Shown here piece by piece: positions 20,207 to 64,000 of a DNA stretch of 64,000 nt. The notes below the pieces were generated by a model. That model did no database searches. It saw nothing but the letters and a program-made list of their open reading frames with translations, and had not been told where the DNA came from. The stretch is from positions 4,992,001 to 5,056,000 of the forward strand of contig OY760175.1 of the NCBI GenBank assembly GCA_963663165.1. The letters are read 5' to 3'. The position numbers were made by a program, and so were the translations under genes. Source of the DNA: an uncultured Desulfospira sp. GTDB lineage: Bacteria; Desulfobacterota; Desulfobacteria; Desulfobacterales; Desulfobacteraceae. The stretch's first letter is position 1. The number at the start of each line of letters is the position of its first letter.

Positions 20207-20842
20207 ATGCAGCCCCGGTTAACCCCCAAGCAGGAGACCGTGCTGGCCTATCTGAAGCAGGCCATTAAAAAAAACGGCACCACCCCCAGCCTTAGAAGTG
20301 CCGCCGCAGACCTTTCCATCAGCCACGCGGCCGTGGCCCAGATCCTCAAGACCCTGGAAGACAAGGGGCATATCCGGCGGGAGGGCCGGTATTCCAGGTC
20401 CATCCATATCCTTGCCCGGGCCGGAAGCCTGGATGCGGTTCACCGGCACAAGCAGATTCCCATCATCGGCCATATCACCGCCGGGCTGCCCATGTATGCC
20501 CAGCAGGAATGGGAGGGCAGTCTCCTGGTGGATGACGCCGTATATCCGGGGCCGGACCTGTTTGCCTTGAAAATCCATGGGTCATCCATGAAAAACGCCG
20601 GGATACTGGATCAGGATATCGCAGTCTGCCGTCCCCGGCAGTACGCCCGGGACCGGGAGATTGTTGTGGCCCTGATCCGCAATGAAGAGGCCACGGTAAA
20701 GCGATTTTTCCTCCATGGAGAAACCATTGAGCTGCGGCCGGAAAATCCGGATTTCCAGCCCCGGTTTTACGATTTTGACGAAATTTTGATACAGGGAAAG
20801 GTAATCGGTATTATCCGGCCGCCCCAGGGAATGGTGCCATGA
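20207..20842 (+). CDS. lexA: LexA repressor
   Basis: N-terminal wHTH (LT.KQ..VL, TPS), ITAG cleavage site, GSSM and ATVKR catalytic Ser/Lys; AGGAG RBS. Confidence 0.92.
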   Translation: MQPRLTPKQETVLAYLKQAIKKNGTTPSLRSAAADLSISHAAVAQILKTLEDKGHIRREGRYSRSIHILARAGSLDAVHRHKQIPIIGHITAGLPMYAQQEWEGSLLVDDAVYPGPDLFALKIHGSSMKNAGILDQDIAVCRPRQYARDREIVVALIRNEEATVKRFFLHGETIELRPENPDFQPRFYDFDEILIQGKVIGIIRPPQGMVP

Positions 20843-21669
20843 GTTTTGAAAGAGACCTTAACACCAGCTGCGAACTTCTGGTGGGAACCAGCGGGTATTC
20901 CTACTCTGAATGGGTGGATGCCGGGTTTTATCCTGCCGGGACCCATTCGGCTGACATGCTTTCCCGGTATGCCGCGGTATTTAAGGTAACCGAGCTTAAC
21001 TTCACCTGGTACCAGATGCCCAAGGCCCCGGCCATGGAACGTATGGCTGCCCGGGTGGCGGAAGGATTCCAATTCGCTGTTAAACTGACCCGGACCCTGA
21101 CCCATGAAATCCGTCAGGATCAGTGGCAGGGCCAGGCCAGGGAATTCTGCCAGGGGATAGAACCGTTAAAAGAGGCGGGAATGCTGTTGTGCGTTCTGAT
21201 TCAGTTTCCGCCGTATTTTAAGCGAACTGTTGATTCCCGCCGGTACCTGGCCCTCCTTCTGGATGAATTGGCCAGAACCGCTGACGTGTCCCTGGCTGTG
21301 GAATTCCGCCACCATTCCTGGGTCAATGACCGGGTATTTGTCGAATTTGAACGGCGCAGGATATCCCTGGTTACCGTGGATGAGCCGGACCTGCCCTATT
21401 TGTTTCCCCGGCTTGCCGTGGTCACCAGCCCGGATTTGTTTTACGTGCGTTTTCACGGCAGAAATCGCAACGGGTGGGGATCGGGCAGCATGCAGCAGCA
21501 GTTCGACTACCATTATTCAGAACCGGAGCTGGCAGAGTGGGCCGCTTTTGTTCAACAAAACATGGCGCCGGCAGCCCGTCAGGGGGTTTTATTTTTCAAC
21601 AACCACGTGCGGGGGCAGGCCCCGGCCAATGCACAAACGTTAAATAAGCTTTTAGCCGTTAGCGATTAG
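20839..21669 (+). CDS. DUF72 domain protein
   Basis: VGTSGYSY..W, ELNFTWY, QFPP.F, VEFRH.SW, YVRFHGRN, FFNN. Confidence 0.9.
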   Translation: MSFERDLNTSCELLVGTSGYSYSEWVDAGFYPAGTHSADMLSRYAAVFKVTELNFTWYQMPKAPAMERMAARVAEGFQFAVKLTRTLTHEIRQDQWQGQAREFCQGIEPLKEAGMLLCVLIQFPPYFKRTVDSRRYLALLLDELARTADVSLAVEFRHHSWVNDRVFVEFERRRISLVTVDEPDLPYLFPRLAVVTSPDLFYVRFHGRNRNGWGSGSMQQQFDYHYSEPELAEWAAFVQQNMAPAARQGVLFFNNHVRGQAPANAQTLNKLLAVSD

Positions 21670-21699
21670 CCATTAGCTTGGGGTGTCCTGCTAACAGCT
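21651..21699. repeat. Heptamer array overlapping the DUF72 stop codon
   Basis: tttagccgttagcgattagccattagc...gctaacagc. Confidence 0.6.
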
Positions 21700-21714
21700 T
21701 TCGCGAGAACCATC

Positions 21715-22914
21715 ATGGAACGGTCCATCATCCACCTGAACATTGCCGATTTTGCCGCAGCCGTAGAAACCCGGATGTCCCCGGGGCTTACCGGCTTCCC
21801 CCTGATCATCGCCCCTGCCGGAACGGCCCGGGCCGTTGTGTTTGACATGAACAACAAGGCTTTTGAGGAAGGGGTCAGAAAAGGCATGCCCCTGGTCCGG
21901 GCCTGCCGCCTGGTTTCCGGGGCTAAAGTCCTGCCGCCCCGGTTCAACCGGTATGGACAGGTCATGAGACAGATTGCCGGCAAGGCCCTGGCCTACACCC
22001 CTAAAGTGGAGCCGGGCCGGGAGGACGGCCACATTTTCCTGGATGTCACTGGCACCTCCAGGCTTTTCGGCCCGGCCGTGGATGTGGCCTTTCGCCTGAA
22101 AAAAACCGTTAAAAAAGACCTGGGCCTGGATCCTATCTGGTCCCTGGCCACCAGCAAGACCGTGGCCAAGGTGGCCACCCGCCTGGTCAAGCCCGTTGGG
22201 GAATACATTGTGGGGGCCGGAGAGGAGGAGGGGTTTTTATCCCCATTGCCTCTTTGTCTGATTCCCGGGCTTAAGCAGGATGAGCTTTCCCTCCTTAAAT
22301 CCTTTAATTTGTCAACGGTTGACGGGCTTAAGGGGCTAAGCCTGTCACAGCTGGAGGTTCCGTTCCCCGGCAGATCACGGATGGTTCATGACCTGCTTCG
22401 GGGCGTAGATCCCGCCCCGGTATTGCCGGATCAAATGGGGGCCGGAAACCGGGTCCGGGCCGGCCGGGAATTTGCCCGGGATACCAATGACCAGGAGGTG
22501 ATTAAGGCTGGTCTTTACGCTTTGGTAGAAGAGATCTGCATATCCCTTCGGCAGCAGGGACTGGTGATAAAATCCTTTCGCATTGTCCTGTCCCATTCCG
22601 ACGGAATTCAATGTTCCGCCAAAGGGAAGCTGACCCCGTGGGGGGATGCCGAGTCCGCCGTATTCAAGGCCTGCACCCGGATTCTGGCCCGGGCATGGAC
22701 CCGGCGGGTAAGGGTCCGCCATATGGAACTGATCTGTGAAAAGGCGATTTCCCCGGCCTTGCAGGGAGACCTGTTCGGTGAGCTGCCGGGCAAAAAACAG
22801 CTGGAACGGCAGGCCCGGCTGGCCCAAACCCTGGATAAAATCCGGGACAAATTCGGCCCTGGCGCTGTGAGGCCGGGGTTGGCGCTGGCGGGGGATGACG
22901 GCACCCCACGATGA
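21715..22914 (+). CDS. imuB: Y-family DNA polymerase homologue, probably catalytically inactive (ImuB-like)
   Basis: DinB-fold motifs (IIHL...FAAAVE, GV.KGM, KTVAKVA..KP.G) but catalytic acidic motifs degenerate; QGDLF clamp-binding motif; abuts dnaE2. Confidence 0.8.
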   Translation: MERSIIHLNIADFAAAVETRMSPGLTGFPLIIAPAGTARAVVFDMNNKAFEEGVRKGMPLVRACRLVSGAKVLPPRFNRYGQVMRQIAGKALAYTPKVEPGREDGHIFLDVTGTSRLFGPAVDVAFRLKKTVKKDLGLDPIWSLATSKTVAKVATRLVKPVGEYIVGAGEEEGFLSPLPLCLIPGLKQDELSLLKSFNLSTVDGLKGLSLSQLEVPFPGRSRMVHDLLRGVDPAPVLPDQMGAGNRVRAGREFARDTNDQEVIKAGLYALVEEICISLRQQGLVIKSFRIVLSHSDGIQCSAKGKLTPWGDAESAVFKACTRILARAWTRRVRVRHMELICEKAISPALQGDLFGELPGKKQLERQARLAQTLDKIRDKFGPGAVRPGLALAGDDGTPR

Positions 22915-25900
22915 TCCCCCTGAGCCTGAGATCCCATTATTCCCTCATGTGGGGAGTTCCGTCGATCAAGGAACTGTGCCGGCATGGGGCCGCCCTGGGG
23001 TATCGCCGCATGGCCCTGACCGATACGGATAACCTTTACGGCATGTGGGATTTTATTGCGGAATGCCGGTATAACGGTATTTCGCCCATTATCGGGGCTG
23101 AGGTCACGGACCCGGTTGAATCCCACAGGGCGGTCTGCCTGGTTAAAAACAGCCAGGGCTTTACCGGGCTGTGCCAGTTGCTGACCCGGCGCCACAGGGA
23201 TGAATCCTTTAATTTAAAACAACGCCTTCCCGAATTTTCCCAGGGGTTGCTGGTGCTGACCAAATCCCCGGAGCTGTTACGGTTCTTTCACAGTCATGAA
23301 GTGGATCTGGCCGCCTTTATGCCCCGGTGTCCGTCCGCCGGCCACCGGGACCTGATGGGGCTTTCCCGTAAACTTGGGCTGCCCGTGACGGCCGGGCCGG
23401 GCAGTTTTTTTCTCCACCCTGGAGATGCGGCGCTGCATGCCATGCGCCGGGCCATCGACCGGAATACCTGTGTAAGCCGCCTTGCCCCAGGCCAGGTCGC
23501 GCCGGACAATGCCTTTTGGGGTCCTGCCGGGCTTTATGAACAGCGGTTCTCGGCATTCCCACAGGTCCTGGAAACCAGCCGAAAGCTTGCGGAAAAGCTG
23601 GAATTTGAAGGGCCTGATTTTGGCATTGTCATGCCCCCGTGGCCCAAAGAGACCTGCCCGGCCCATGAGGTCCTGCGAAGAAAAACCCTGGAAGGGGCTG
23701 CCAAACGATATAAAACCCCGCTTGAGCCCCGGGTTGTCCAAAGGATCGACCATGAGCTGAACATTATCCAGCAGAAAAATTTTTGCTCCTATTTTTTAAC
23801 GGTCCAGGACATTGTGTCCGGGGCCTCCCGGATCTGCGGCCGGGGGTCCGGGGCAGCATCTCTTGTGGCCTACTGCCTGGGGATCACCAATGTCTGTCCC
23901 TTGAAACACGATCTGTACTTTGAACGGTTTCTTAACCCGGATCGAAAAGATCCGCCGGATATTGACGTTGATTTCGCCTGGGATGAACGGGACGACCTTC
24001 TGGAGCAGGTTCTGAACCGGTTTAAAGGGCACAGCGCCATGGTGTCAAGCCATATTCTGTTCCAGCCCCGGATGGCGGTCCGGGAGGTTGCCCGGGTTTT
24101 CGGCCTGCCTGACCGGGAAATTTCAAAAGTTTCCAAACGGATGCCCTGGTTCTGGAATCAGGATATGGTAGGCCTGGATCTGCTGGAATTTATTAAAAAA
24201 GATCCTAAATTTAAATTTACGGATTTTCCTGAACCCTGGCCAGAGATCATGGCCCATGCAAGGGCCCTTGTGGGAAGCCCCCGGCATTTGTCTGTCCATC
24301 CCGGCGGTGTGGTGATCACGCCTTCTCCCATTGACCATTATGTGCCCATTGAAACCGCGCCCAAGGGCATTGCCCTGATGCAGTGGGACAAGGACGGGGC
24401 GGAAACCGCCGGCTTAGTCAAGATCGATCTTCTGGGCAACCGGAGCTTAGGCGTGATCCGGGATGCGGTGGAAAGCATCCGGGTATCTGCCGGAAAATTT
24501 GACGATTTTGAGCAGATAGACCCGGAAGATGATCCCAAAACCCAGGAAACCGTGGCTGACGGCCGAACCATGGGCTGTTTTTATATCGAAAGCCCGGCCA
24601 CCCGCCTGCTCCAGAAAAAATCAAAGGTCGGGGATTTTAACCATGTGGTCATTCATTCCTCGATTATCCGGCCGGCGGCCAACGACTATATCAAGCTTTA
24701 CCTTGAGCGGCTCCACACCGGGGTTTGGGACCCTATCCACCCTCTGATCGGGGATCTTTTAGACGAGACTTTCGGCATCATGGTTTATCAGGAGGACGTT
24801 TCGAGGGTGGCGGTCCGCATGGCCGGGTTTGGCCATGCCAAAGCAGACGGTCTGCGCAAGATCATGTCCAAAAAGGACAAGACCCGGGAGCTGGCCGATT
24901 TTTACCGGCAGTTTGAGCTGGGCGCGGCCCGAAAAGGGGCCGGTCTCAAGGATATTCAGACGGTCTGGAACATGATTGTAAGTTTTTCCGGTTATTCCTT
25001 TTGCAAGCCCCATTCCGCCTCCTATGCAAGGGTTTCTTTTCAGGCGGCCTATTTGAAAACCCATTACCCGGCCCCGTTCATGGCCGCTGTTATCAGCAAT
25101 CAGGGCGGGTTTTATTCCACCTTTGCCTATGTGTCCGAGGCCCGTCGGGCAGGACTGGCCATTCTGGGGCCGGACGTCCAGGAAAGCAAAATCCGGTGGG
25201 AAGGAAAAGGCCGGAACCTGAGGGTGGGGCTGATGGCGGTAAAGGGGCTTGGCCGGGAGACCATGAACCGGATTATAACGGAGCGGGATAAAAGCGCTTT
25301 CACAGACCTGGAGGATTTCTTAAGCCGGGTTGGGCCCCGGAAAGATGAGATAACGGCCCTGATTCACAGCGGCTGCCTGGACCGGTTTGGCATGGAAAAG
25401 GGCCGGGGAGCGCTGTTATGGGCATCGGCCTGCCGGGCCAGGCCGGGTAAAACAAAACAGGTTAGGCCCTTTGAGCCCTCTTTGTTTGATGTTGCGGCAA
25501 TGGCGCCGGATCCGCCTGAACTTCCGCCGGACAACCCCATGGACCGGTTCAGGCAGGAATTCGGGGTGCTGGGGTTTTTATGCGCCTGTCATCCCATGGT
25601 TCTTTACAGGGAAGTTATTGAAAAGGAAAATTCAATTAAAGCTGACCAGCTGCCCGCCTGTGTGGGTCGGCAGGTGGTGTTTGCCGGATGGCTGATTTCC
25701 GGTAAGACCGTTCAGACCAAACAGGGGGAGCCCATGAAATTTCTTACCTTTGAAGATGAAACCGGCCTGGTTGAAACCGTGTTTTTTCCCCAACCCTATG
25801 TCCGGTTCTGCCACATGCTGACCTATGGCCGCCCGTATTTTCTCAAGGGAAAGGTCGAATCCGACTGGGGAGCCGTGACCCTGACCGTTTCTGTGACCTG

Positions 25901-25940
25901 GCCGGTTCCCGCCGGCAGGGATAAAAATTCAAAAATGTAG
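22911..25940 (+). CDS. dnaE2: Error-prone DNA polymerase III alpha subunit
   Basis: PHP domain (SHYSL, ALTD), GRGSGA.SLV, FERFLNP.R..PDIDVD, HPGG, YSFCKPHS, C-terminal OB fold; 1009 aa in a LexA-led cassette. Confidence 0.9.
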   Translation: MIPLSLRSHYSLMWGVPSIKELCRHGAALGYRRMALTDTDNLYGMWDFIAECRYNGISPIIGAEVTDPVESHRAVCLVKNSQGFTGLCQLLTRRHRDESFNLKQRLPEFSQGLLVLTKSPELLRFFHSHEVDLAAFMPRCPSAGHRDLMGLSRKLGLPVTAGPGSFFLHPGDAALHAMRRAIDRNTCVSRLAPGQVAPDNAFWGPAGLYEQRFSAFPQVLETSRKLAEKLEFEGPDFGIVMPPWPKETCPAHEVLRRKTLEGAAKRYKTPLEPRVVQRIDHELNIIQQKNFCSYFLTVQDIVSGASRICGRGSGAASLVAYCLGITNVCPLKHDLYFERFLNPDRKDPPDIDVDFAWDERDDLLEQVLNRFKGHSAMVSSHILFQPRMAVREVARVFGLPDREISKVSKRMPWFWNQDMVGLDLLEFIKKDPKFKFTDFPEPWPEIMAHARALVGSPRHLSVHPGGVVITPSPIDHYVPIETAPKGIALMQWDKDGAETAGLVKIDLLGNRSLGVIRDAVESIRVSAGKFDDFEQIDPEDDPKTQETVADGRTMGCFYIESPATRLLQKKSKVGDFNHVVIHSSIIRPAANDYIKLYLERLHTGVWDPIHPLIGDLLDETFGIMVYQEDVSRVAVRMAGFGHAKADGLRKIMSKKDKTRELADFYRQFELGAARKGAGLKDIQTVWNMIVSFSGYSFCKPHSASYARVSFQAAYLKTHYPAPFMAAVISNQGGFYSTFAYVSEARRAGLAILGPDVQESKIRWEGKGRNLRVGLMAVKGLGRETMNRIITERDKSAFTDLEDFLSRVGPRKDEITALIHSGCLDRFGMEKGRGALLWASACRARPGKTKQVRPFEPSLFDVAAMAPDPPELPPDNPMDRFRQEFGVLGFLCACHPMVLYREVIEKENSIKADQLPACVGRQVVFAGWLISGKTVQTKQGEPMKFLTFEDETGLVETVFFPQPYVRFCHMLTYGRPYFLKGKVESDWGAVTLTVSVTWPVPAGRDKNSKM

Positions 25941-45154: not shown

Positions 45155-46555
45155 TTAGTGGCCTAAGCAAAGTGACCGAATTTGTATGAAGATATTGTCA
45201 GTCAAGATGTTCCACCTCCCGGAAAGGAGCTGACTCCTTAAGAACAACATTGATTCGGATGTTTCCGGTTTCCAGAATATACCCGGTGATTTCATTCTGA
45301 GATTTATAACCCGACGTATTGCACTTTCAACACAGCCGCTGCCAGTAGGTATTTTCAGGCTGCAGAACTGGCGATACTGCATTCTGTTTCGATTTTTCAC
45401 GAAGTAACTTTTAAATTTGGATAGTGCTTCTATGCGCCTTTTAGGGTACGTAATGTGTTTTACAATTTCTTTTCTAAGGTCTTTGAATCTGCCATCCCAA
45501 AGGAGGTTCTTCCAAGATTCTGCTATCCGGTTTCTTTCTTTTATAGGGATTCTCTTTGGCAATTTGTCCACGATTTCATGTAAATTCTGTTTTGCATGGG
45601 TGTAGTCGATTACCTCATAATAGGATTCGATTTCAAGCCGTTTGGCCAGCGGGCCTGTTCGCTTCCAATAGCTACGTGCACCGTCACAGCAGAAAACAAC
45701 ACGCTTGGCTTTGGGAATATCTAATTCACGCAAGTAGATCTCAAGAATATCAAAAGCGGCATCAATACCGCCCATTGTGGCATCATAAACCGGCAAGTGT
45801 TTTTTGGATATTGTGCCGTCCGGATCGACAATATGTATGACAAACTGAATGGGTTCTTTCCATTCAGCATGATATCCCTGCCGCTTTTGGCCTTTTGATT
45901 TACGTCCCCGTTTTGGCCTCCGTTCTCGAAGGCGACCGCCGTCGATACAAACCAGAACCGTTTTGCCACCAACGCGATCAGTATCTCCAAAAGATACCCG
46001 GCCACGCAGGGGCATAGCTTCCTGTGCAAGATTCATTGTTATGCGGCGTATGGTTTTGACATTTAAGTTGATTGCATGGTTTTCCAGGGATCTTCGGGCA
46101 ATTTCAAAAGAGGGACAGAGCAATGCTGCATGGACCACCGACGAAGCGAACAGCGTTGAACACCTGCCGATAAAACCAAGGTAATCAAGCCCAAAATGGC
46201 GGCCTGTCCCCTTTTGTCGTTTTTTTGTTTTAGGGCCTGGCCGTTGTTTGGAAACAACTTTTGAAAAGTAAGGGGATCGGATGCTCAGGGTAGTTCCTGT
46301 CAATAATCGAATGCTGCTGGGGCGGTATCCGTTGAAACGCAGTCCCTTTTTACCGGCACCAATTTTCAGTTCAGATAAAAGATCCGGGTCAGACAGTGCC
46401 TTTTCAATGACGGGAACCAGAAATGCTTCCACAATAATGAAGAGGCCGTTCCGTACCTGCTCACACAGGATATTAGCATTTTGATGGTTTTGGAAATCAG
46501 CTACGGCTTTTGTTAGAAGGGTTCGAATATCCCTTATAGTGGAAGCAAGTTTCAT
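45155..46555 (-). CDS. DDE transposase (ISKra4/ISLre2/UPF0236-like)
   Basis: CIDGG, CCDGA..W, DYTHA (DxxH), GSGCVESAIRRVI..RMK..G..W; stop codon inside the TIR. Confidence 0.85.
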   Translation of the reverse strand: MKLASTIRDIRTLLTKAVADFQNHQNANILCEQVRNGLFIIVEAFLVPVIEKALSDPDLLSELKIGAGKKGLRFNGYRPSSIRLLTGTTLSIRSPYFSKVVSKQRPGPKTKKRQKGTGRHFGLDYLGFIGRCSTLFASSVVHAALLCPSFEIARRSLENHAINLNVKTIRRITMNLAQEAMPLRGRVSFGDTDRVGGKTVLVCIDGGRLRERRPKRGRKSKGQKRQGYHAEWKEPIQFVIHIVDPDGTISKKHLPVYDATMGGIDAAFDILEIYLRELDIPKAKRVVFCCDGARSYWKRTGPLAKRLEIESYYEVIDYTHAKQNLHEIVDKLPKRIPIKERNRIAESWKNLLWDGRFKDLRKEIVKHITYPKRRIEALSKFKSYFVKNRNRMQYRQFCSLKIPTGSGCVESAIRRVINLRMKSPGIFWKPETSESMLFLRSQLLSGRWNILTDNIFIQIRSLCLGH

Positions 46556-46612
46556 GATCAGTCCTCGAATTGCAGGTTGAAAAATTACCTGTCATTTCGA
46601 TGACTGAAACCC

Positions 46613-47485
46613 TCAAGGTTGTGTGCATAGCTGCTTTTTATAATTGGAAGTCAACGGGTATACATAGATGTCTTTTATCGGCACCTGAAGTCTGTGGTGC
46701 CTGTCTTGACGGCTTCGCCCTTTGCTTTGACCAATTTTTTGCCAATTTGCCGCCTGGTAGCAAGTTCCGGCAAAGCGTGATCGATCCACGAAAGTTTCTA
46801 CCAGACAGATATCGTGACCATATTTAGCTGTCCAGTCCCGGCTCAGCCGCCTAAGACATGAACCCAGAATATGACTGGCAAGATGGGGAATTCGAATCCA
46901 TGGCAAAATCAAAAATCGGGTATTGTTGGTCGTCATATGCAGGTTCCTGCGACGAGCCGACCTATCCCAACCGATGAATCGGTCACGAGGGGCCGTTTTC
47001 CATGCTGCTGAGCCAAAAAGCAGGCAGGCAACCGGACGAGAATTGCGATCAAAAGCCATATACTTCATATGTTCTCCGACATACCCTTTACACCCAAGGT
47101 AATGATATCGATCCATAAGGCAATGGAATAAATCATCAATATCTCCACGGCCCGATACCGGTATCAATTGTATCGGGCGGATCTTACGCAAAGTGGTTTC
47201 TATCGGCTTACAATCATGGGGGACATCGGGAATACGCCGCTGACGGTTACCGCTATGACGGGCAACGGGAAGTGTGACCATCCCTTTTTGCTCAAGTTTT
47301 CTCAGCATGCTTCGACAGGCCATGTCCTTGAGCAGACCTTTTTCCGTGCGCCAATCCCAGCGAGCACACAATTCTTTGGATAAACGAGTGCGGTGCCAGG
47401 CGGGATTGTCGTTAATCAAATGGCGTATCGTTTGTATATCAACTTCTGAAAATTCACGTCCTTGAATGGTTAAAGTCCTGCTCAT
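46613..47485 (-). CDS. DUF4338 / Druantia DruA-like protein
   Basis: R..LS..LC..W.W, HYLG, RDRFIGW, NNTRFLILPW...HLAS.IL, ETFVD..RF.GTCY.AANW..IG..KGR. Confidence 0.85.
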   Translation of the reverse strand: MSRTLTIQGREFSEVDIQTIRHLINDNPAWHRTRLSKELCARWDWRTEKGLLKDMACRSMLRKLEQKGMVTLPVARHSGNRQRRIPDVPHDCKPIETTLRKIRPIQLIPVSGRGDIDDLFHCLMDRYHYLGCKGYVGEHMKYMAFDRNSRPVACLLFGSAAWKTAPRDRFIGWDRSARRRNLHMTTNNTRFLILPWIRIPHLASHILGSCLRRLSRDWTAKYGHDICLVETFVDRSRFAGTCYQAANWQKIGQSKGRSRQDRHHRLQVPIKDIYVYPLTSNYKKQLCTQP

Positions 47486-47613
47486 GCAAATCTATATAAC
47501 CTTTCATGAGCCAGGAGTCCAGCTTTTTTTGGGAGGGCAGAGTATTCAATGCAGCATGAAAAACGGAAAAATTGGATACATGTCAGTTCATGCCACTAAA
47601 TGGGATTGCACCC

Positions 47614-48165
47614 TTCCAGGGGTTTCTTTGCCTTCCGGGTAATGATGTTGATAACGCCGCCCATGGCCTGGTCTCCATATTCAGCCGATGGGGTTTTGAT
47701 GATCTCAATGCGCTCTATATCATGCACTGCCAGGCGCCCGGGCCTCATGGCGCCATTTCCATTATTGAGTTCTATGCCGTTGATCATCAACCTCATTCCC
47801 CACTGGGTAAGCTCACTGCCCCTGCTGCTCACCGAAATATCGATATCTACAGGACTGTGGGGGAGATACAGTCCCGGTATATTTAATTCCTGCAACAAGG
47901 TGAGCGCGTTGTAATGACCCGGATACTGTTCTATTTCTTCCCGGGAGACGACGCTGACATTGGTGGGTATTTTATCCACCTCGGTGCTCATCTTGGTTGA
48001 GGTGACGATTATATCGCCAAGATCAGTAGTTTTGGAATCTTCTTTATCATCCTGGGCCCACCCGGGCGGACAGGATAAAAGAAAGATCATTAGTGTGATA
48101 AAGGCAAGGTAAAATATTGATATACCAGTGCTGCTTAATTTTTTTTCCTTAACTGCATCAACCAT
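47614..48165 (-). pseudogene. TonB-dependent receptor 1, N-terminal (signal + plug) part
   Basis: Signal peptide, DIIVTS TonB box, IERIEIIK.P...YG..AMGGVINIIT plug motif. Confidence 0.9.
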
Positions 48166-48265
48166 GTTAAATTCCTTTCAGACCGTATCAAGTTGTTTTG
48201 AAATAACATTTTCATTTCAGATAATCATACGGAATAACATATATATGGGCAGTCTTTGACGCGGC

Positions 48266-48304
48266 TATCAGATCCGTTCAATTCTTTATCATCAGCGTTC
48301 ATTT
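48266..48304 (-). promoter_or_regulatory. 21-bp-period direct repeat, candidate AraC binding site for receptor 1
   Basis: tatca-gatc-cgttca (48266) and tatca-tcag-cgttca (48287). Confidence 0.5.
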
Positions 48305-48305
48305 T

Positions 48306-49310
48306 TTATACGGTTTCATTCTGACGGTAGTAACTTGGGGGCATGCCGAAAAAGTCCCGAAATGCTTTTGCAAAATGGCTTGAACTTGAATAGCCTAAAG
48401 TGTAAGCAATCTGTGTCATGCTCAAATCTTTATCTTCAATCATCAGCTTGGCCTTTTCGATGCGTTTTATACGAAGATATTCCATGGGAGATACGCCGAA
48501 CAGCTGGTTAAACCCATGGTATAGCTTTGTACGGGACACACCGATTGTCCTGGCCAGTTCCATTACATCGGGAGGAGAGGAAAGATTCTTTGACAGCAGC
48601 TCCCCGGCAAAGTGAAACCGGTCGGCATCGCCGGATCTGACAGATGAGTTATTTTGCTGCTTTTTCCCGGCCGGTCTGATCTGATCAAGTTTACAGGCAA
48701 TCAGTTCCATTGCCTTGCCTTCGATAAAAATACGACGGGCAGCCCCTTGGTAAGGACACGAAAAAAGCTGTTGCAAAATAACCCGCATGGAAGGTGTCAA
48801 AATCCCCTCGGCATGATAAGGTTCGTATACGGCTGTTCCGGAACCCGCTGAAATCTTTGGTTTAAAAGGGATTGAATCCATTTCTTCTTCCAATAAAGGA
48901 AAAAACAATGACGGTTCAATCAGGATCAGGACCTTGTGAATATGTGTTTCGGGCATATCTTTATGAGAATGCATCATGTTCGGTGAATAAAAGAACCCAC
49001 TGTCACCGGACTTCACAGTCAAGGGTTTTTTTAAACACTCAAAGCTTAATTCCGTGTGTCCTGAAAGACAAAAGCGGAAGCCAAATAAAGGCGAGGTGAC
49101 TTTGTTTTGACTGGTTAATAGCTGTAAGGTTTTGTAGTTGTGCAAGTATACAGTAAGGCCGCTTTTAAATCGGAACTCTTTCATTATCCCCGTTCCGATA
49201 TCGGGCCGGACGCCCCAGCATGTTTCAAAACCAGTGGTCTTTATCTTAATATAATCCGGCGAATCTACATTACTTCCCGGTTGTCGGCCGCCCCATTTTT
49301 TTCTATTCAT
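48306..49310 (-). CDS. AraC family regulator (PchR/YbtA-like)
   Basis: CPYQGAARRIFIEGKAMEL; C-terminal double HTH LAR.IGVSR..L..GF, IAY.LGYSSSSHFAKAF. Confidence 0.9.
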   Translation of the reverse strand: MNRKKWGGRQPGSNVDSPDYIKIKTTGFETCWGVRPDIGTGIMKEFRFKSGLTVYLHNYKTLQLLTSQNKVTSPLFGFRFCLSGHTELSFECLKKPLTVKSGDSGFFYSPNMMHSHKDMPETHIHKVLILIEPSLFFPLLEEEMDSIPFKPKISAGSGTAVYEPYHAEGILTPSMRVILQQLFSCPYQGAARRIFIEGKAMELIACKLDQIRPAGKKQQNNSSVRSGDADRFHFAGELLSKNLSSPPDVMELARTIGVSRTKLYHGFNQLFGVSPMEYLRIKRIEKAKLMIEDKDLSMTQIAYTLGYSSSSHFAKAFRDFFGMPPSYYRQNETV

Positions 49311-49560
49311 TTCTATCTCTTTGCAGCGTAAATTGGCCTGCTCTGCAGGTCTATGTTGAAAACAATCAAAAGAGCAACTTGCAAGTCTGGCATAAAAAAA
49401 GCCGGGAATTCCGGATGGAGTTCTTTTCTCCCGGCCTTCCTGGCTTTAACTATTGCTATTTAACTATTAATTAATTGTTTAGGATCAACGGTTTCAGTAC
49501 CGTTATTTAAGGATTATTGGGTATTATACTTTTTTGCTGGTGTCAAGATATATACTATAA

Positions 49561-51520
49561 CAGGAGTTTCGGAGATAAGCCTCTCGGGATTGCTGAACGC
49601 CTTTATTGATAAGCCTTTTCGGCTCTGCCTTTTGTAGTACCCCTCAAATCAAGCCGCCTTCTATGTTAAAAACCCTGTCAAATAGGGCTTTCTATTATTT
49701 TTCTCTTGACTTGTAAGACCCTACCATATACTATGAAGCATGGCACATTTCCACATTAAGAAGAAAAAAGGAAGACCCTACCTTTATGTGAGGGAGATCG
49801 CTCGGGTAAACGGCAAGCCCAAGGTCATTTCTCAAACCTATATTGGGTCACCGGATCGGGTAGCGGGCCTTGTGAAGGGACAGTCCCAGGAAATAACAAC
49901 CTTGAGGGCTGAAGAATTCGGTGCGCTGTGGCTGGCCCAGCAAGCAGATAAAGACTTTGATCTTTGCTCTTTGATTGATGAGATTATTCCACCTGCAGAT
50001 CGAGAAAAAGGACCTACAATAGGGGAATATTTCCTTTATTGTGTCTGGAATCGCATGATTGAGACCGCCAGTAAAAACAAATTGTCGGATTGGTATAAGA
50101 GAACCGCGATCCAGCATATACGCCCTGTCGATCTAAACGAACTCTCATGCAAACGATACTGGGACAAATGGGACCGGGTTGATGAAAAAAACTTAAACGC
50201 TATCATATCCAAGTTCTTTGAACGATTATGGCAGGTCGAAAACCCTTCTTCTGATTGCCTGCTATTTGACACCACTAATTATTATACCTTCATGGGAAGC
50301 CAAACCGAGTCAGAAATAGCGCGCAGGGGTAAAAACAAGGAAGGGAGGCATCATCTCAGACAGATCGGCCTTGGCCTTCTGGTTGCACGAGACACCAGGC
50401 TCCCTTTATTTTATTCGATTTATCCAGGCAACATTCATGATAGCAAACACTTTGAAGCGGTCATGGAGGCAGTGTTTGGGGTAGTATGCGCCCTGAACAA
50501 GACCAAAGAGCGGCTTACAATTGTTATTGACAAGGGAATGAATTCAGAAGGGAATTATACCTGGATTGACGAGCATTCCAGGGTCCATTTTATTACGACA
50601 TATTCCACTTATTTTGCCCAGGAACTTGCCACCATCCCACTCGACCAGTTTGAAATTGCAGATACTGCCCGAAACAGAAGGTTGATTGATGAAGAATGCC
50701 AGGATGAGTGTCAATTGGCACATCGGACCAAAAAAGAATACTGGGGCAAGGAGCGGGCAGTTATCATAACTTATAACCCCAGAACAGCCCGAAAGAAATC
50801 ATACACCTTTGAAAGCAAGCTTGATACGATCCGACAGGAACTGCTCTTAATGAGGGCCAAGGTGAAAGAAGGGGCCGTTCACTGGAAAAAAGCCGAGGAC
50901 ATACAAGCCAGATATATCCGGTTGTGTCAAAGGCTTCACATGGCCTCCGATTTATTTACTCTGAATTTTGAAACCTCAGAAGATGGCTTGAATATGAGCT
51001 TCCGAAAAGATCCATACATAGTGAAGCAAAAAAAAATGATGTTCGGTAAAAATATTATCATCACAGATAATACGGATTGGGCAACAAGAGACATTATTGA
51101 AGCGAGTTTAGACCGCTGGCAAGTTGAAGACCGCTTCCGTCTCAGTAAGAATGAGGACTTAGTCGGTGTGCAGCCGATCCGGCACTGGACTGACAGCAAA
51201 ATCAAATGCCATTTATTTACATGTGTGGCAGCCATGGTTTACCTGCGCCGAATTGAATTAAAACTAAAGAACTCCGGAATTGAACGGACAGCAGAGGACG
51301 TCATGGATGATATGAAGCATCTACATTCCATTTTGACGTTGCCGAAAGGTGCAAGAAAACCGACCAGGCGCCTTGAGACGCCGAGTAAGACCCAGGCCGA
51401 AGTCCTATCGGCCTTTGGCTATCATGTTAATGAAGGTGGGGTCTTACAGTCAGAAAATTGAGTTACGCCCGCCAAGCAAGGCTTTCGCCGAGCCATGCCC
51501 TCTTAACCACGAAACTCCTG
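49561..51520 (+). mobile_element. 1960-bp IS1634-family insertion sequence
   Basis: TIR caggagtttcg / cgaaactcctg (16/19 match when extended); 5-bp target duplication TATAA at 49556-49560 and 51521-51525. Confidence 0.9.
49740..51461 (+). CDS. IS1634 family transposase
   Basis: Y.Y.RE..RVNGKPK, LFDTTN, RGKNK.GR..L.Q, YPGN.HD, IDKGM.S, R..VE..FR..K, PIRHW.D..I..H. Confidence 0.9.
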   Translation: MAHFHIKKKKGRPYLYVREIARVNGKPKVISQTYIGSPDRVAGLVKGQSQEITTLRAEEFGALWLAQQADKDFDLCSLIDEIIPPADREKGPTIGEYFLYCVWNRMIETASKNKLSDWYKRTAIQHIRPVDLNELSCKRYWDKWDRVDEKNLNAIISKFFERLWQVENPSSDCLLFDTTNYYTFMGSQTESEIARRGKNKEGRHHLRQIGLGLLVARDTRLPLFYSIYPGNIHDSKHFEAVMEAVFGVVCALNKTKERLTIVIDKGMNSEGNYTWIDEHSRVHFITTYSTYFAQELATIPLDQFEIADTARNRRLIDEECQDECQLAHRTKKEYWGKERAVIITYNPRTARKKSYTFESKLDTIRQELLLMRAKVKEGAVHWKKAEDIQARYIRLCQRLHMASDLFTLNFETSEDGLNMSFRKDPYIVKQKKMMFGKNIIITDNTDWATRDIIEASLDRWQVEDRFRLSKNEDLVGVQPIRHWTDSKIKCHLFTCVAAMVYLRRIELKLKNSGIERTAEDVMDDMKHLHSILTLPKGARKPTRRLETPSKTQAEVLSAFGYHVNEGGVLQSEN

Positions 51521-58517: not shown

Positions 58518-60194
58518 TTATGGTAAGTCCCGGTGAGTGGAATGGAGGCTTTTGTCATGGATGATGTTCCACGTCAAATTATATGATTTTAAGTACTTAT
58601 TAAGTCTTGAAGTGTCGTCTGAAGTTTTTTTCCTTTTCCGGGAACAGGAAAACAATCGTATACCTGCCTCGGAACGGGTGGTGCTGTCCATACAGACCTT
58701 TATGGTGCTTTCCAGTTGAATTTTTTCAAACAAATCCAGTTCCCTTGCAATTTCCAAAGAAAAGAGATCAATCAAAGGGAAATGGGATTTGGGTTTATCC
58801 GTCAAAATTGATGAACCGGTATTTTTGTTTTTCCATAAAGCAGAGAGCAGATCAATCTCTTTTTGGACAATGTTGTCGTCGATGACACCATGGAATGAAT
58901 ATGTGATCATTCGTTCCAGCGAACCTAAAAGACTCCTGAAATTATTCGGCCACACAGCATACTTTGATGAGGCAAAGGTCAAATAGGTTTTCCTGGCGGA
59001 GGGAAGGAATTCGGCAAAGATTCCTCTTTCTTCGGCTATGCGTTGCAGTTCATAATCAATATTCGGCTCAATGTCCTCGGGGCGCTGGCGCAAGGAGGGA
59101 AGTTCAAAATGCCAGAGATTGATCCGGGAAAGCAGATCCCCACGAAAGTGTCCGGCTGAAACCGCCACAGAAAGGTCTTGGTTGGTTGCACAGATAAGCT
59201 GGAAGTTGCTGTTTACTTCCGTATCCGACCCAAACGGGATGAAACGTTTTTCCTCTATTGCCTTTAGCAGCATGACCTGCATGTCCACAGACAGTTCTCC
59301 GATTTCGTCAAGAAATAAAATACCATTGTCCGCAGTCCGTAAAAGCCCTTTGCGGTTTATGATGGCGCCAGTATAGGACCCTTTTACATGACCAAAAAGC
59401 GTTGACATGGCGCTAACTCCGTGCAGGGTTGCGCAGTTTATTTCCACGAACCCGCCTGAAACCATGCCCCGCTGAACACGCAGCTCATAAATTTTCCGGG
59501 CAAGTTTGGATTTTCCCGACCCTGTTGGACCGGAAAACAACATCGGGGCAATGGAGTGGGTCGCCACGTGTTCAATGTCCTTTATCAACGAGTTGAAGGC
59601 GTGGTTTTTTGTTTTTATGGATGATTTCAGATAGTCCAGTGAGTCGGTCCTTTTCCGTTCAAAGGAACCGAGTTCGGAGATCCATTTGCTGACGGCACAA
59701 TCATAAATTTCAATTTTTTTTTCGTGGTCCCGAACACCATGTTTCTGGGGTGAGCGAAGGTGAAGAATTTTCAGTGGAAGTTTGCGCGCGTTGATGAGGG
59801 TCGCAAGCATGAACGCATGGAGGAAAAGATTGCCCGGCCCGAAATGAAAATAGTAATCTTCTTTTTGGGTATTAAAGGTAAAACCTTCAAAATAATGGCA
59901 GAAAAATCGGTAAAATTCACCGATATTTGACGATGAAAAATCCTGGTTCAAGGTTGACGGGACCGGTGTGATTTCAGACTCAGGAGATATCTCCAGCAAG
60001 TCGTTTTGAAGCGTTTCTATATTTTTTATCTGGGAGGCGCTGACAAAATAGTTCAGCTTGCGGATAAAAAAATTTTTCACACCCATCAGTTCAGTCAATG
60101 GACGCCATTGTTTCCATCGGTTCTGATCCGTGGCCATGTCATGATCTTTGGAAATGGTGCTGAATACGACGATGTCTTTTTCGATGGTTTCCAC
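58518..60194 (-). CDS. rtcR: RtcR-like sigma54-dependent activator (N-terminal RtcR/CARF domain, AAA+, HTH)
   Basis: RW..WRP, ISPE, F...KEDY..H, LKS.I.T.N..FN..I, GPTGSGKS, NCATL.G..AMSTLFGHVKGSYTGA, RINLW.F.LP, LDLF...QL, RL.KYL...LTW, colinear with remembered E. coli RtcR; GTG start. Confidence 0.85.
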   Translation of the reverse strand: METIEKDIVVFSTISKDHDMATDQNRWKQWRPLTELMGVKNFFIRKLNYFVSASQIKNIETLQNDLLEISPESEITPVPSTLNQDFSSSNIGEFYRFFCHYFEGFTFNTQKEDYYFHFGPGNLFLHAFMLATLINARKLPLKILHLRSPQKHGVRDHEKKIEIYDCAVSKWISELGSFERKRTDSLDYLKSSIKTKNHAFNSLIKDIEHVATHSIAPMLFSGPTGSGKSKLARKIYELRVQRGMVSGGFVEINCATLHGVSAMSTLFGHVKGSYTGAIINRKGLLRTADNGILFLDEIGELSVDMQVMLLKAIEEKRFIPFGSDTEVNSNFQLICATNQDLSVAVSAGHFRGDLLSRINLWHFELPSLRQRPEDIEPNIDYELQRIAEERGIFAEFLPSARKTYLTFASSKYAVWPNNFRSLLGSLERMITYSFHGVIDDNIVQKEIDLLSALWKNKNTGSSILTDKPKSHFPLIDLFSLEIARELDLFEKIQLESTIKVCMDSTTRSEAGIRLFSCSRKRKKTSDDTSRLNKYLKSYNLTWNIIHDKSLHSTHRDLP

Positions 60195-60450
60195 CTTTTA
60201 CGCCCTTTTAACAAAAAATCATTAACCGGCAAGAGTGCCAAATCAAGGCAAACCCAATCACGCCGGTTAGGCAATCTGATTGTTTCAACCCAATAACAAG
60301 ACGCGGCTTCAACAATAAGTTACTGGCAATGGCCTTATTTTTTACAGAATATTTTCTGATTGTACAGAATTATTTCCGGTGTCATATGCGGGTGATAAGT
60401 TCGTCTATCGTAATATATCGTTATTATTGGATAATATTATATCAACGAAA

Positions 60451-60466
60451 CGGCATATATTTTGCT
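60451..60466 (+). promoter_or_regulatory. sigma54 promoter of flavoprotein-ferredoxin-TRAP operon
   Basis: CGGCATATATTTTGCT, GG-N10-GC spacing, ~70 nt before the ATG. Confidence 0.7.
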
Positions 60467-60535
60467 ATTTTTATAAGTACAAGCCCATACCGGCAAGGTT
60501 AATAAGTTGTGCCGTAATTGAAATAAGGAGGTGCT

Positions 60536-62188
60536 ATGCAAGTTACGAAAAAGAACTGGGGGAATTTGTATGAAGTAGATGTGCTGATTCTCGGAACCGG
60601 CGCTTCAGGAATGGGGGCTGCTTTACAGGCGTCAGAACAGCAAGCCGACGTGCTTATGGCAGGCAAGGGAACCTTGGAGAGTTCCGGCTCATTAGGGGGC
60701 GGAAATGATCATTTCATGGCCATTCTGGATACGGATGAGCCAAATGACAACAAGGAAGCTTTTGTAAATTTTTACATGAAATCGGCTTTTGGCTATAAGA
60801 AAGAGCAGTTAGAGCAATGGCATGCCGCCATAAAACCCTGCCTGAAAACCCTTGATGAAGTTGGAACTAAATACTTACTCAAGCCCGATGGAACACGATT
60901 CAGGTCTGTCGGTTTTGGCCAGCCCGGCGCATGGTGGTTGAACATCATCAACGGAAAAACCATCAAACGCAATTTGGCCAAAAAAATTCGGAGCCTGGAT
61001 GTCAATGTCCTGGATAACTTTCAAATCACCAGAATGTTCACAAATGAAGGGCAGTTTACCGGATGTATGGGATTCGATATCTTGAGCGGCGAAGTCAGTG
61101 CCATCCAGTGCAAGGCGGCAGTAAACTGCCTGGGATGGCACGCCCAGCGGGTTACCAACAATTCGACATACAATCCCTTTAACTGCTGGTTTACGCCCTT
61201 CACTACCGGCAGCTATCTTGTACAGCCGTACGAAATAGGGGCATCCATTATCAACGCTGATATTGCGACCCGCGCAACCCTCCTGCCGAAAGGATGGGGG
61301 GCACCCGGAATGAACGGGATCAATAACATGGGGGGACACGAACTCAATGCGCTTGGAGAACGTTTCATGGGTAAATATGACCCAATGATGGAAAACGGAA
61401 AGCGGATTAACCAGGTTTTGGGAACCTATCAAGAGCAGATTGAGGGCAAGGGCCCCCCATTTTACATGGACATGCGGCACTTTACAGAAGAAGAAGCCCA
61501 CCACCTGCAATATGTACTGATGCCTGCAGACAAAGAAACGTATCTGGATTACTGCAAAGCCCGTAATATCGATTTTAAGAAAACGCTTCTCGAAGTGGAG
61601 GTTGGCGAACTCAGCCTGTCAGGGATGCTGGTTGCAGATGAGCGCATGGAAACTTCCGTAAAAGGGCTTTTTGCAGGATGCAATTTTACAAGTTTTTCAG
61701 GAGCGATGTGCGGCGGTTATGTTGCCGGATTTCACGCTGTCAATGCCGCCCGGGAGACCGCCATTGGCCAGCTGGGTGAAAATGAGATAATGGATGAAAA
61801 ATCCCGGGCCATGGCCCCGCTTGGCCGAAAGCTGTCAAATGCTTTTTCCCAGCTTGATTTTGAAAATCCGATACGGCAGGTCATGGATTATTATGGGAAG
61901 TACCGGCGCAATATGGCCGGAATGTCCCTGGCGTTGGAAAAGCTTTCCCTGATTGATAGCTACAAGGAGCGGGTCAGTGTAAAAAATTTGCATGAGCTTA
62001 TGCGCCTGCACGAGTCATACGACATTCTTGCGTTGTGCCGGATCCATTTGCATGCCTGCCTGCAACGCAAGGAAAGCGGGCGCGGGATGTTTCAAGTTTC
62101 GGATTACCCCGATTTGGATCCTGAATTATCCAAGGGACTCGTGGTTCAGAAAAAGAACGGCGAACCTGTATATTCATGGAGCAGCTAA
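60536..62188 (+). CDS. FAD-dependent oxidoreductase, AprA/SdhA/NadB superfamily (APS reductase alpha-like)
   Basis: DVLILGTGASG..AA, SGS..GG.DH, N.LGERFM..Y, TSV.GLFA, R.ESG...DYP. Confidence 0.82.
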   Translation: MQVTKKNWGNLYEVDVLILGTGASGMGAALQASEQQADVLMAGKGTLESSGSLGGGNDHFMAILDTDEPNDNKEAFVNFYMKSAFGYKKEQLEQWHAAIKPCLKTLDEVGTKYLLKPDGTRFRSVGFGQPGAWWLNIINGKTIKRNLAKKIRSLDVNVLDNFQITRMFTNEGQFTGCMGFDILSGEVSAIQCKAAVNCLGWHAQRVTNNSTYNPFNCWFTPFTTGSYLVQPYEIGASIINADIATRATLLPKGWGAPGMNGINNMGGHELNALGERFMGKYDPMMENGKRINQVLGTYQEQIEGKGPPFYMDMRHFTEEEAHHLQYVLMPADKETYLDYCKARNIDFKKTLLEVEVGELSLSGMLVADERMETSVKGLFAGCNFTSFSGAMCGGYVAGFHAVNAARETAIGQLGENEIMDEKSRAMAPLGRKLSNAFSQLDFENPIRQVMDYYGKYRRNMAGMSLALEKLSLIDSYKERVSVKNLHELMRLHESYDILALCRIHLHACLQRKESGRGMFQVSDYPDLDPELSKGLVVQKKNGEPVYSWSS

Positions 62189-62214
62189 AATATTTTTACA
62201 TGAAAGGAATTAAA

Positions 62215-62427
62215 ATGCCTCCTGTATTTAAAGATGAAGAATGTATCCGTTGCGGTATGTGCGTTCGCGACTGCCCGGCGTATATTTTGGAGATGGATGA
62301 CAGTAACGGGGACTTGCCGCATGTAATAGAGGAATACAAGCTCGAATGCTGGCACTGTGGAAACTGCCGAATCAGTTGCCCAAACAATGCCATTACGTTT
62401 GAGTTCCCCCTTTATACTTTGGTGTAA
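62215..62427 (+). CDS. 2x[4Fe-4S] ferredoxin (AprB-like)
   Basis: MPP...CIRCGMCVRDCP ... ECWHCGNCRISCP..AI. Confidence 0.88.
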   Translation: MPPVFKDEECIRCGMCVRDCPAYILEMDDSNGDLPHVIEEYKLECWHCGNCRISCPNNAITFEFPLYTLV

Positions 62428-62466
62428 GACAAACAATCTGCCATACCGAAAAAGGAGACCGAGAAA

Positions 62467-63552
62467 ATGAAAAAGTTTTGCGTATTGGGAATTTTTATTA
62501 TCATTATGGCCTTTTCCATTACGGTTCCGCTCCATGCGGCACCGGATTTTATCCTCTCTTTTAACCTGGCAATCCCCCCGATTCACAACCGGTGGAATAT
62601 GGCCCTGAAACCTTGGGCAGAAGAAATCATGAAGCGCAGTGAAGGCCGCATTCTCATTGAACCCTATTTTGCCCAGGCCCTGAGCAAACAAGAAGAAGTG
62701 GCTGAGTCGGTCCGGTCAGGCGTAGCCGATATCGGGGAAGCGACTTTTACGGTACGCGGGTTGGGAAGGTTCCCTTTTCATGAACAGCTGATTAATTTAA
62801 CAAAACCCAGCAATTGTACCCGTGATGCAGCCAGCCTTGTCAAAGAACTCCACAACGCATTCCCTAAAGAGGCAATGGGGGATGTGGCAGGGACCAAACT
62901 ATTGTTTTTAGAAGGCCATTCGGTGGGGATGCTAATCGGCTCCAGCAAGAAGCCGGTAAAGACATTGGAAGACCTGAAGGGGTTAAAGCTGGGGGTGTCC
63001 GGTGGGGGAATCCGTCTGGAACGGGCCAAAAAACTGGGCGCAACCGTGGTCGGCATTACGGTTCCGGACATGTATATGTCCATTGAAAAAGGCATTATTG
63101 ACGGCGCTGTCGTTGACTGTGAGTTGCTAGTTTCCCGGAAACTGGGTGATGTCATCAAACACTTGACGCTTATAAACATGGGGGGCAGTGTTTTTTACTG
63201 TGTAATGAACCAGGATACATTTGACCGAATGCCTCCGGATTTGCAAAAAATTATTGATGATGTTTCCCGGGAGGTCGCACCAAAACTATTTTATAACTTT
63301 TGGGAAAGGATGCAATATGTAAGCCTTGAAAAATGGGAAAAGGAAATGGGCGGAAAGCTCTATATGCTGTCTGATGCGGATTATGCCAAAGCGGATGAAC
63401 TGGTTGAGCCGACCTTTACCGAATGGGTTAAATTTTCAAAAACAAAAGGCCTGCCTGCTGAGGCTATTTTGAAAAAGTATCGGGAGCTTGAGAGCCGTTT
63501 CATGGAACCTTGGGCAAAATCAAAAGCGGCCCAGTTTGTAACCGGAGGATAG
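62467..63552 (+). CDS. dctP: TRAP transporter substrate-binding protein
   Basis: Signal peptide, S.GR..I, G.ADI, PV..LEDLKGLK, LGA, Y..IEKG.IDG, MN......MP.DLQ. Confidence 0.88.
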   Translation: MKKFCVLGIFIIIMAFSITVPLHAAPDFILSFNLAIPPIHNRWNMALKPWAEEIMKRSEGRILIEPYFAQALSKQEEVAESVRSGVADIGEATFTVRGLGRFPFHEQLINLTKPSNCTRDAASLVKELHNAFPKEAMGDVAGTKLLFLEGHSVGMLIGSSKKPVKTLEDLKGLKLGVSGGGIRLERAKKLGATVVGITVPDMYMSIEKGIIDGAVVDCELLVSRKLGDVIKHLTLINMGGSVFYCVMNQDTFDRMPPDLQKIIDDVSREVAPKLFYNFWERMQYVSLEKWEKEMGGKLYMLSDADYAKADELVEPTFTEWVKFSKTKGLPAEAILKKYRELESRFMEPWAKSKAAQFVTGG

Positions 63553-63678
63553 ATAAAAGGGAATAGATTTTGGCGGCAAAAAGGCAACAAACGAAGCGCT
63601 TATGGTTTTAGACGCAACCGCCATTTAAACCGTAGCACAATCGAAAAAGCACCGGGAATTTCTTTTAGGAGGAACATC

Positions 63679-64000
63679 ATGGAGATGCATCATCAAATGT
63701 CGAATTTTTCCCGTAAACAAGATCCATTGCATACAATTGTTCTTGCTGTTCGTGCATTGAAAAAAATTCAGCCGCTGTGCAAGTGGCTGAGTACCATCGG
63801 CATGTATTTTTTCTTGATCATGGTGGCCATTACGTTCCTGGATGTGTTTCTTCGGTATTTTTTCTCCAGTCCGTTAAGCGGGACTATTGAGCTAACTGAA
63901 TTCTTTATGGTCGTGGTGTTCTTTTCATCCGTTGCCTATACTCATTGGATCGGCGGCCATATCTCAATGGATATCATTACGGGAAGGCTTCCCCCTGAAA
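63679..64000 (+). CDS. dctQ: TRAP transporter small permease (DctQ or DctQM fusion), runs off window
   Basis: Manual translation from ATG 63679 (AGGAGG RBS): DVFLRYFFSSPLSGTIELTE..AY...GGHISMD. Confidence 0.8.
   Translation, partial: MEMHHQMSNFSRKQDPLHTIVLAVRALKKIQPLCKWLSTIGMYFFLIMVAITFLDVFLRYFFSSPLSGTIELTEFFMVVVFFSSVAYTHWIGGHISMDIITGRLPPE

Follow-up and report, generated by a model that had tools for sequence, protein, structure and literature searches.

What does an RtcR-family regulator control when it lies beside genes for transport and redox chemistry? This question is raised by a locus at the end of a 64,000-nucleotide stretch (the window) from an uncultured Desulfospira sp., whose 6.74-Mb single-contig genome is 96.7% complete. 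A 558-amino acid open reading frame (ORF) of the RtcR family occupies 58518-60194 on the minus strand, with a GTG start likely at 60194. It is divergent from a plus-strand operon of four genes, which encode in order an AprA-fold flavoprotein (60536-62188), a 2x[4Fe-4S] ferredoxin (62215-62427), the solute-binding protein DctP of a TRAP transporter (62467-63552) and its permease (63679 onward). RtcR is described as a CARF-repressed activator of RNA repair that responds to damaged tRNA (PMC9650030, PMC7790460; accessible text). An earlier reading of this locus from sequence only had proposed that a repurposed CARF activator was wired to the flavoprotein and TRAP genes, and the linkage, the regulator clade, the promoter and the uncoupling from rtcB all support this proposal. 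We consider it very probable that the protein evolved from the RNA-repair regulator RtcR into an activator dedicated to the neighbouring operon, which would serve nutrient uptake and redox conversion. The gene layout of the sequence-only reading also held, except that its last gene, named there as dctQ, is a fused DctQ-DctM of 643 amino acids. Only the 5' part of this gene (63679-64000) is in the window; it closes the operon 1.6 kb past the window end, at G000:C1:5057610, where it faces a convergent prmA-like gene. With DctP, DctQ and DctM all present, the DctP-type TRAP set is complete.

The regulator was examined by profile searches and phylogeny, both of which the sequence-only reading had called for. 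The N-terminal RtcR domain PF06956 matched residues 9-182 of the scanned stretch (E 1.6e-20, above the Pfam cut-off), and the AAA+ domain matched PF00158 with an E value of 1.4e-45. Against NF038308, the RtcR equivalog model with a cut-off of 650 bits, the window protein scored 551 bits, a member of its clade in genome G765 604 bits and a canonical RtcR of G566 779 bits. Its identity to Escherichia coli RtcR is 28% in the CARF domain (59640-60194, minus strand), 59% in the AAA+ domain and 41% in the RtcR-type C-terminal DNA-binding domain, while the CARF domains of canonical RtcR proteins from the host's own order are 53-57% identical to that of E. coli. In FastTree trees of 63 and 54 rows, the flavoprotein-linked regulators formed one side of a branch with support of 99. 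IQ-TREE separated this clade from canonical RtcR with support of 100/99 among 25 selected rows. Sixteen rows were labelled canonical, nine because rtcA or rtcB was seen adjacent and seven by 53-58% CARF identity to E. coli RtcR; two canonical rows bear an rsr label that is our assumption. The phylogeny with gene neighbourhoods thus recovered a separate clade tied to AprA-like flavoprotein genes. Regulator and enzyme trees from 14 pairs gave the same main groups, with a rank correlation of identities of 0.71 for pairs that are not independent. In 23 of the 25 clade rows the AAA+ loop is either GAFTGA or GSFTGA, and the canonical C-terminal motif NDADRLRKYL is changed to DDTxRLNKYL in the clade. 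The protein appears to work like RtcR yet falls below the equivalog cut-off, lacks the canonical CARF motifs and has no rtcBA link. Six more non-canonical RtcR-like proteins were noticed (P0129, P0130, P0133, P0134, P0136 and P0141, of which P0134 is named from Desulfovibrio litoralis), and they may mark further recruitments of RtcR.

The CARF domain retains its fold, and its predicted pocket is remodelled. An AlphaFold model computed from six sequences had a mean confidence score (pLDDT) of 68.9, and its top 22 fold matches were CARF or CRISPR-ancillary proteins, the best with a Z score of 12.8 and a root-mean-square deviation of 2.8 over 131 aligned residues. The ligand pocket of CARF domains is formed by the ends of strands 1 and 4, according to the accessible text of PMC4012209. 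The canonical motifs G-x-LG-x-x-LD and ITTGTHVAQ are replaced in all 25 clade rows. After strand 4 the window domain reads HFGPGNLFLH where canonical proteins read HITTGTHVAQ; across the clade, GNxFxH takes the place of TTGTH. T113, T114, G115, T116, H117, V118 and Q120 are invariant in 16/16 canonical rows, and G118, N119, F121 and H123 are invariant in 25/25 clade rows. After strand 1 the window domain has FST, with F8 present in every clade row and T10 in 24 of them; a W-x-x-W-R-P motif is partly retained. Since the pocket has acquired fresh invariant residues, we infer that it was selected for a different ligand and has not simply decayed. When metagenomes were scanned with the CARF alignment, none of 597 pattern matches proved to be a relative; relatives came from the flavoprotein scan instead. 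The ESM Atlas returned only generic names with CARF scores of 0.81-0.82, which serve as leads only.

The adjacency of regulator and flavoprotein is not unique to the host genome. Flavoprotein scans yielded 18 loci from species genomes and 78 metagenome loci, the latter retained from the top 80 among 171 confirmed stretches. The divergent regulator-flavoprotein-ferredoxin layout recurs in L005, L006, L034-L040, L068, L072 and L095, although several of these loci are near-copies and L095 looks chimeric. (L074 and L095 are metagenome contigs whose 5' and 3' parts come from different flavoprotein types and are probably chimeric assemblies.) A search of 401 Desulfovibrionaceae genomes with a profile built from seven CARF domains matched 33 of them, with a clear gap after 18 at E <1e-40. 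In 14 of these 18 the clade regulator is directly divergent from the flavoprotein. In the other four, the G714 regulator is at a contig edge and those of G765, G755 and G774 are rearranged. The G765 regulator is convergent and lies 15 kb from the flavoprotein start, beyond the end of an enlarged operon whose promoter retains the activator box described below; only flavoprotein fragments are seen beside the regulators of G755 and G774. Counted from the enzyme, with at most three candidates scored per genome, the flavoprotein reaches E <=1e-215 in 15 of the 401 genomes, and 14 of the 15 carry the regulator clade. In the remaining genome, G459, a sigma-54 activator with a PAS domain is found upstream of the flavoprotein instead. 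These counts are given without a statistical test because the genomes are kin and many are drafts. The clade is rare in the host's family (1 of 36 other genomes), and when 401 genomes around the host were searched across its phylum, only three weak canonical-type matches appeared.

A predicted sigma-54 -24/-12 promoter, CGGCATATATTTTGCT (GG-N10-GC; 60451-60466, plus strand), precedes the flavoprotein gene. Upstream of it, TACAGAAT is repeated at 60343 and 60363, with a CAGAA-N4-TTCTG palindrome at 60345-60358; the sequence-only reading had placed the promoter and these candidate enhancer repeats correctly. The sigma-54 site is present in all 28 orthologous promoter rows, and TCAGA-N6-TCTGA, with at most one mismatch, occurs upstream of it in 24 rows, or in 16 of 19 when only distinct promoters are counted. 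Two boxes are often present, with centres 97-100 and 78-79 bp from the sigma-54 site. The window has candidates at 99 bp (box 1, 60343-60360) and 79 bp (60363-60380), the second being weaker with three mismatches. At the same stringency no box was found in 10 unlinked, more distant flavoprotein homologues, nor in canonical rtc promoters, of which 18 were examined and the 17 that have a sigma-54 site were counted. These control sets are a cleaner test of the box than the counts within the clade. A matrix built from 24 sites at 16 homologous loci, with the window left out, ranked 60343-60360 first of all positions in the 6.74-Mb genome, and among 334 sigma-54-like sites the window box scored 23.4 bits against 13.9 for the runner-up. 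Taken alone, the window holds three matches with at most one mismatch, which is not above chance (1.23 expected; 12 of 100 shuffles as high). The significance of the box comes instead from its conservation in homologous promoters, and this co-conservation suggests that the promoter depends on the activator.

The link to RNA repair appears to be broken in the host. Neither rtcB nor rtcA is in the window, as the sequence-only reading had noted; the genome has a single rtcB 1.1 Mb away and no match to rtcA. This rtcB (L003:1420-2619, G000:C1:6162387) stands alone, with no rtcA, rtcR or sigma-54 site nearby. Another carrier of the clade, G677, has a second, canonical RtcR whose CARF domain is 55% identical to that of E. 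coli, and its rtcB is divergent from this second regulator, which gives one cell with two RtcR regulators and two jobs. Canonical RtcR promoters in the host's order (L023, L024, L025) were seen to be followed by a conserved non-coding stretch with a tRNA-like element and then by an SPFH/Band 7 gene.

What the operon does is suggested by its proteins. The nearest solved relative of the flavoprotein, which has an AprA/fumarate-reductase fold (PRK08275-like, FAD_binding_2), is 8A8O, a reductase of 3'-phosphoadenosine 5'-phosphosulfate (PAPS) (E 1.6e-36; by fold, Foldseek E 2.3e-21 at 23% identity). The aprA model TIGR02061 requires 641.75 bits; the best stretch of the flavoprotein scored 41.5, and the real aprA that the host has elsewhere in its genome scored 937. 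The protein is not a true adenosine 5'-phosphosulfate (APS) reductase, and in the earlier label "APS-reductase-like" the fold stood and the aprA identity did not. It retains the tryptophan that binds flavin adenine dinucleotide (FAD), a residue named in the accessible text of PMC10322725. Its structure model is poor at the active site, with pLDDT <50 at 235-311 and 351-385. The 70-residue ferredoxin has two CxxCxxCxxxC motifs (Fer4 dicluster), follows the flavoprotein in orthologous loci and is likely its electron-transfer subunit. The AprA-fold family, currently annotated as APS or fumarate reductase, was found to be expanded in some genomes, with 10 matches in G765 and 5 in G479 at E <=1e-20, often with their own transporter and regulator. 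The strand-6 arginine of DctP proteins is conserved in 96.8% of 6,142 sequences (PMC5812351, accessible text). The window DctP has a glycine in place of this selectivity-filter residue, with no arginine in that column in 11/11 aligned proteins; R42 and R224 are invariant in the same 11. Its best sequence matches among solved structures are 5I5P, 4N6D, 4NAP/4PGN, 7NR2 and 4P56 (E 1.6e-28 to 1.5e-22), which we take to be aromatic-acid binders with unconfirmed ligands.

The enlarged operon of G765 offers a clue to the substrate. It has a 2-hydroxyacid dehydrogenase and an aminotransferase between ferredoxin and dctP, and continues with a second dehydrogenase, phosphate butyryltransferase, butyrate kinase, a major facilitator superfamily (MFS) exporter and IorAB. 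Such a set resembles oxidative amino-acid fermentation, which suggests by analogy that the flavoprotein product may be an amino, 2-oxo or 2-hydroxy acid. The enzyme and transporter are all that most carriers have, so that the flavin step must pay alone; since all named carriers respire sulfate or sulfite, the release of sulfite is the most economical guess. Distant flavoprotein homologues adjoin TRAP, TTT, CitMHS/DASS and NMT1-type ABC transporters, UbiD, esterases and dehydrogenases. These neighbourhoods fit a family of substrate-specific organic-anion oxidoreductases and do not single out sulfur. We give somewhat less than an even chance to reductive sulfite release from an organosulfur compound built on the skeleton of an amino or 2-oxo acid. 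A redox conversion of an organic acid that lacks sulfur and is possibly aromatic is a weaker contender, some other chemistry is a minor prospect, and a nucleotide substrate is improbable. Of the earlier suggestion of a nucleotide- or sulfur-containing solute, then, the sulfur half remains plausible and the nucleotide half unlikely.

Published data bear on this question through Taurinivorans muris, from which clade member P0279 is named. Its genes TAUVO_v1_1747 (rtcR, 1656 bp), 1749 (FAD-binding protein, 1665 bp), 1750 (Fe-S, 213 bp) and 1751 (sodium:sulfate symporter) are listed in PMC10507020 and, by gene length and order, would be our locus L039. The FAD gene was at 0.4, 1.3 and 2.1 transcripts per million on taurine, sulfolactate and thiosulfate, respectively, with no proteome value, and RtcB has no entry in the Supplementary Data 1 table of that paper, as far as its accessible part goes. 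None of the three compounds induces the operon, which looks tightly off. This near-silence speaks against sulfur chemistry, as do two features of the enzyme alignment: the GGHG histidine loop of 8A8O aligns to a gap, and an arginine of 8A8O aligns to a non-basic residue. The histidine of that loop presumably binds sulfite, a role for the histidine and arginine that we carry over from the Archaeoglobus fulgidus enzyme. In Bilophila wadsworthia, AprAB-like genes and better growth with 10 mM APS have been described (PMC11610557), in accessible text whose genes could not be mapped to a locus of the window type. An IorA cluster of B. wadsworthia (WCP94_004022-4030) has different neighbours and was not taken as a G765-type operon, and the accessible parts of PMC12125255 and PMC12814064 hold nothing on the locus. 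Contigs from RNA libraries span most of the G765-type region, but level, strand and induction are not readable from them. At L167:500-2610, regulator contigs from four RNA libraries of two studies stop within about 110 bp of the stop codon, which hints weakly at a discrete transcript.

We propose the following working model. The activator would sit on the two boxes 80-100 bp upstream of the promoter, with its CARF domain restraining it in the manner of E. coli RtcR. DctPQM, or the DASS symporter in the Taurinivorans type of locus, would import a small organic anion, and this anion or its product may bind the remodelled CARF pocket. Binding would free the AAA+ domain, which would then open the sigma-54 promoter, and the flavoprotein would convert the imported compound with the ferredoxin as its electron wire.

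Three other explanations of the locus have to be weighed against local metabolic control. The regulator might still control the distant rtcB in trans, as the sequence-only reading had allowed for if this were the only RtcR. It is indeed the sole RtcR in a genome with one intact rtcB, but no sigma-54 site occurs within 300 bp upstream of that rtcB and no box within 400 bp (0.8 bits), and the clade persists without an RtcB match in other genomes, two of which (G479 and G719) carry the locus on a contig as large as a whole genome. We regard this control as exceedingly improbable. Hardly more credible is that another sigma-54 activator drives the operon, with the RtcR-like gene as a passenger of a mobile cassette or a degenerate copy. 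The host genome has about 50 sigma-54 AAA+ matches from which such an activator could come, related operons use PAS activators, LysR or IclR, and the cassette is missing from the same position in G002. Against this, the linkage holds at 47-60% regulator identity and after rearrangement, the box follows the regulator and not the enzyme family, and the regulator domain carries clade-specific invariant residues. The CARF domain might instead still sense a nucleotide, either RNA ends with a 2',3'-cyclic phosphate or APS, PAPS or AMP, in which case the operon would scavenge nucleotide-sulfate released by neighbours. The retained CARF fold, the adenylates bound by solved CARF domains, the partly kept W-x-x-W-R-P motif, the kinship of the enzyme to a PAPS reductase (E 1.6e-36) and the better growth reported for B. 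wadsworthia with added APS (PMC11610557, accessible text) all lean this way. The loss of the canonical threonine-rich motif throughout the clade, the missing histidine loop in the alignment, the ill-fitting aminotransferase, hydroxyacid dehydrogenase and IorAB genes of G765 and the presence of a true aprA elsewhere in the host lean the other way, and we judge nucleotide sensing unlikely.

Several observations weigh against local control by this regulator. The window protein has GSYTGA in place of the canonical GAFTGA loop, as does only one other of the 25 clade rows, which leaves its own activity unproven. The carriers are mostly related gut Desulfovibrionaceae and are not independent. The box consensus was picked after inspection of promoters that included the window's, and the clade counts and the genome rank of the box are partly circular. 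An RtcB match is absent in nine of the ten other carriers searched (the tenth is G677), but most carriers are draft genomes, so a missing RtcB is weak evidence.

Compared with known systems, the window regulator shares with RtcR of E. coli and Salmonella (rtcBA, rsr-yrlBA-rtcBA) the CARF-AAA+-helix-turn-helix architecture and a divergent sigma-54 promoter with upstream boxes, and differs from it in its box, its metabolic targets and the absence of a link to rtcA or rtcB. RtcR-like proteins away from rtc genes have been described beside restriction-modification and CoCoNuT systems (PMC4012209, PMC11090510; accessible text). These defence-linked activators are co-oriented with their neighbours and are still proposed to sense RNA ends, whereas the window clade goes with transporter and oxidoreductase genes. 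A literature search, from which most subscription journals were outside, found no published account of an RtcR-like regulator of a metabolic operon and placed non-Rtc homologues only by defence systems. The enzyme resembles AprAB and the Methanothermococcus thermolithotrophicus PAPS reductase 8A8O in its fold, FAD-binding tryptophan motif and two-cluster partner ferredoxin; unlike them, it has no histidine loop in the alignment and no sat or qmo in its operon.

A second non-canonical RtcR-like clade was also noticed, with three proteins from G566 and G512 that carry a GAYTNA/GAYTHA loop and an LPPGRG pocket motif. They lie at L152:2380-5891, L153:4762-11834 and L155:1-13009 inside arrays of sulfatase-fold hydrolases. 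The adjacent divergent hydrolase has a sigma-54 site in all three cases, compared with none of seven other array stretches checked. The idea that these hydrolases are sulfatases, which would have pointed to a sulfate-ester signal, was rejected, as they score far below sulfatase cut-offs and have threonine at the nucleophile position of C/S-x-P-x-R.

The cassette is absent from the same position, the prmA neighbourhood, in G002 of the same genus, where the genes that adjoin prmA correspond to genes more than 20 kb away in the window. The cassette therefore occupies a variable part of the genome and is likely to have been acquired by transfer. Window positions 38000-58400, which lie between a trmB-like gene and the cassette, are variable and absent at the matching place in G002; this region includes ORFs at 45158-51458 that we take to resemble transposases, together with a block of AraC, TonB-receptor, ZinT-like, methyltransferase and binding-protein genes. 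Elsewhere in the window, three co-oriented ORFs at 20839-25937 presumably form a DUF72, DinB/ImuB and DnaE2 mutagenesis cassette, judging from their N-terminal sequences.

To our knowledge, CARF domains whose ligand has been tested respond to cyclic oligonucleotides or to RNA ends and act in defence or RNA repair. CARF signalling would extend to metabolism if a clade does keep the fold, swap the pocket and control catabolic targets. At its most speculative, the CARF domain would have become a sensor of a non-nucleotide metabolite and the AprA-fold enzyme would free sulfite directly from a sulfur conjugate derived from host or diet, without ATP sulfurylase, an unrecognised respiratory substrate for Bilophila, Taurinivorans and relatives, with the second clade as a sign of repeated recruitment of RtcR to catabolism; we hold this view only tentatively. 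The database label RtcR is misleading for regulators of the window clade. With activator, box and promoter defined, a reporter can be screened against metabolites. A compound that induces it would probably show what an orphan flavoprotein family acts on, a family with increased numbers in gut sulfide producers.

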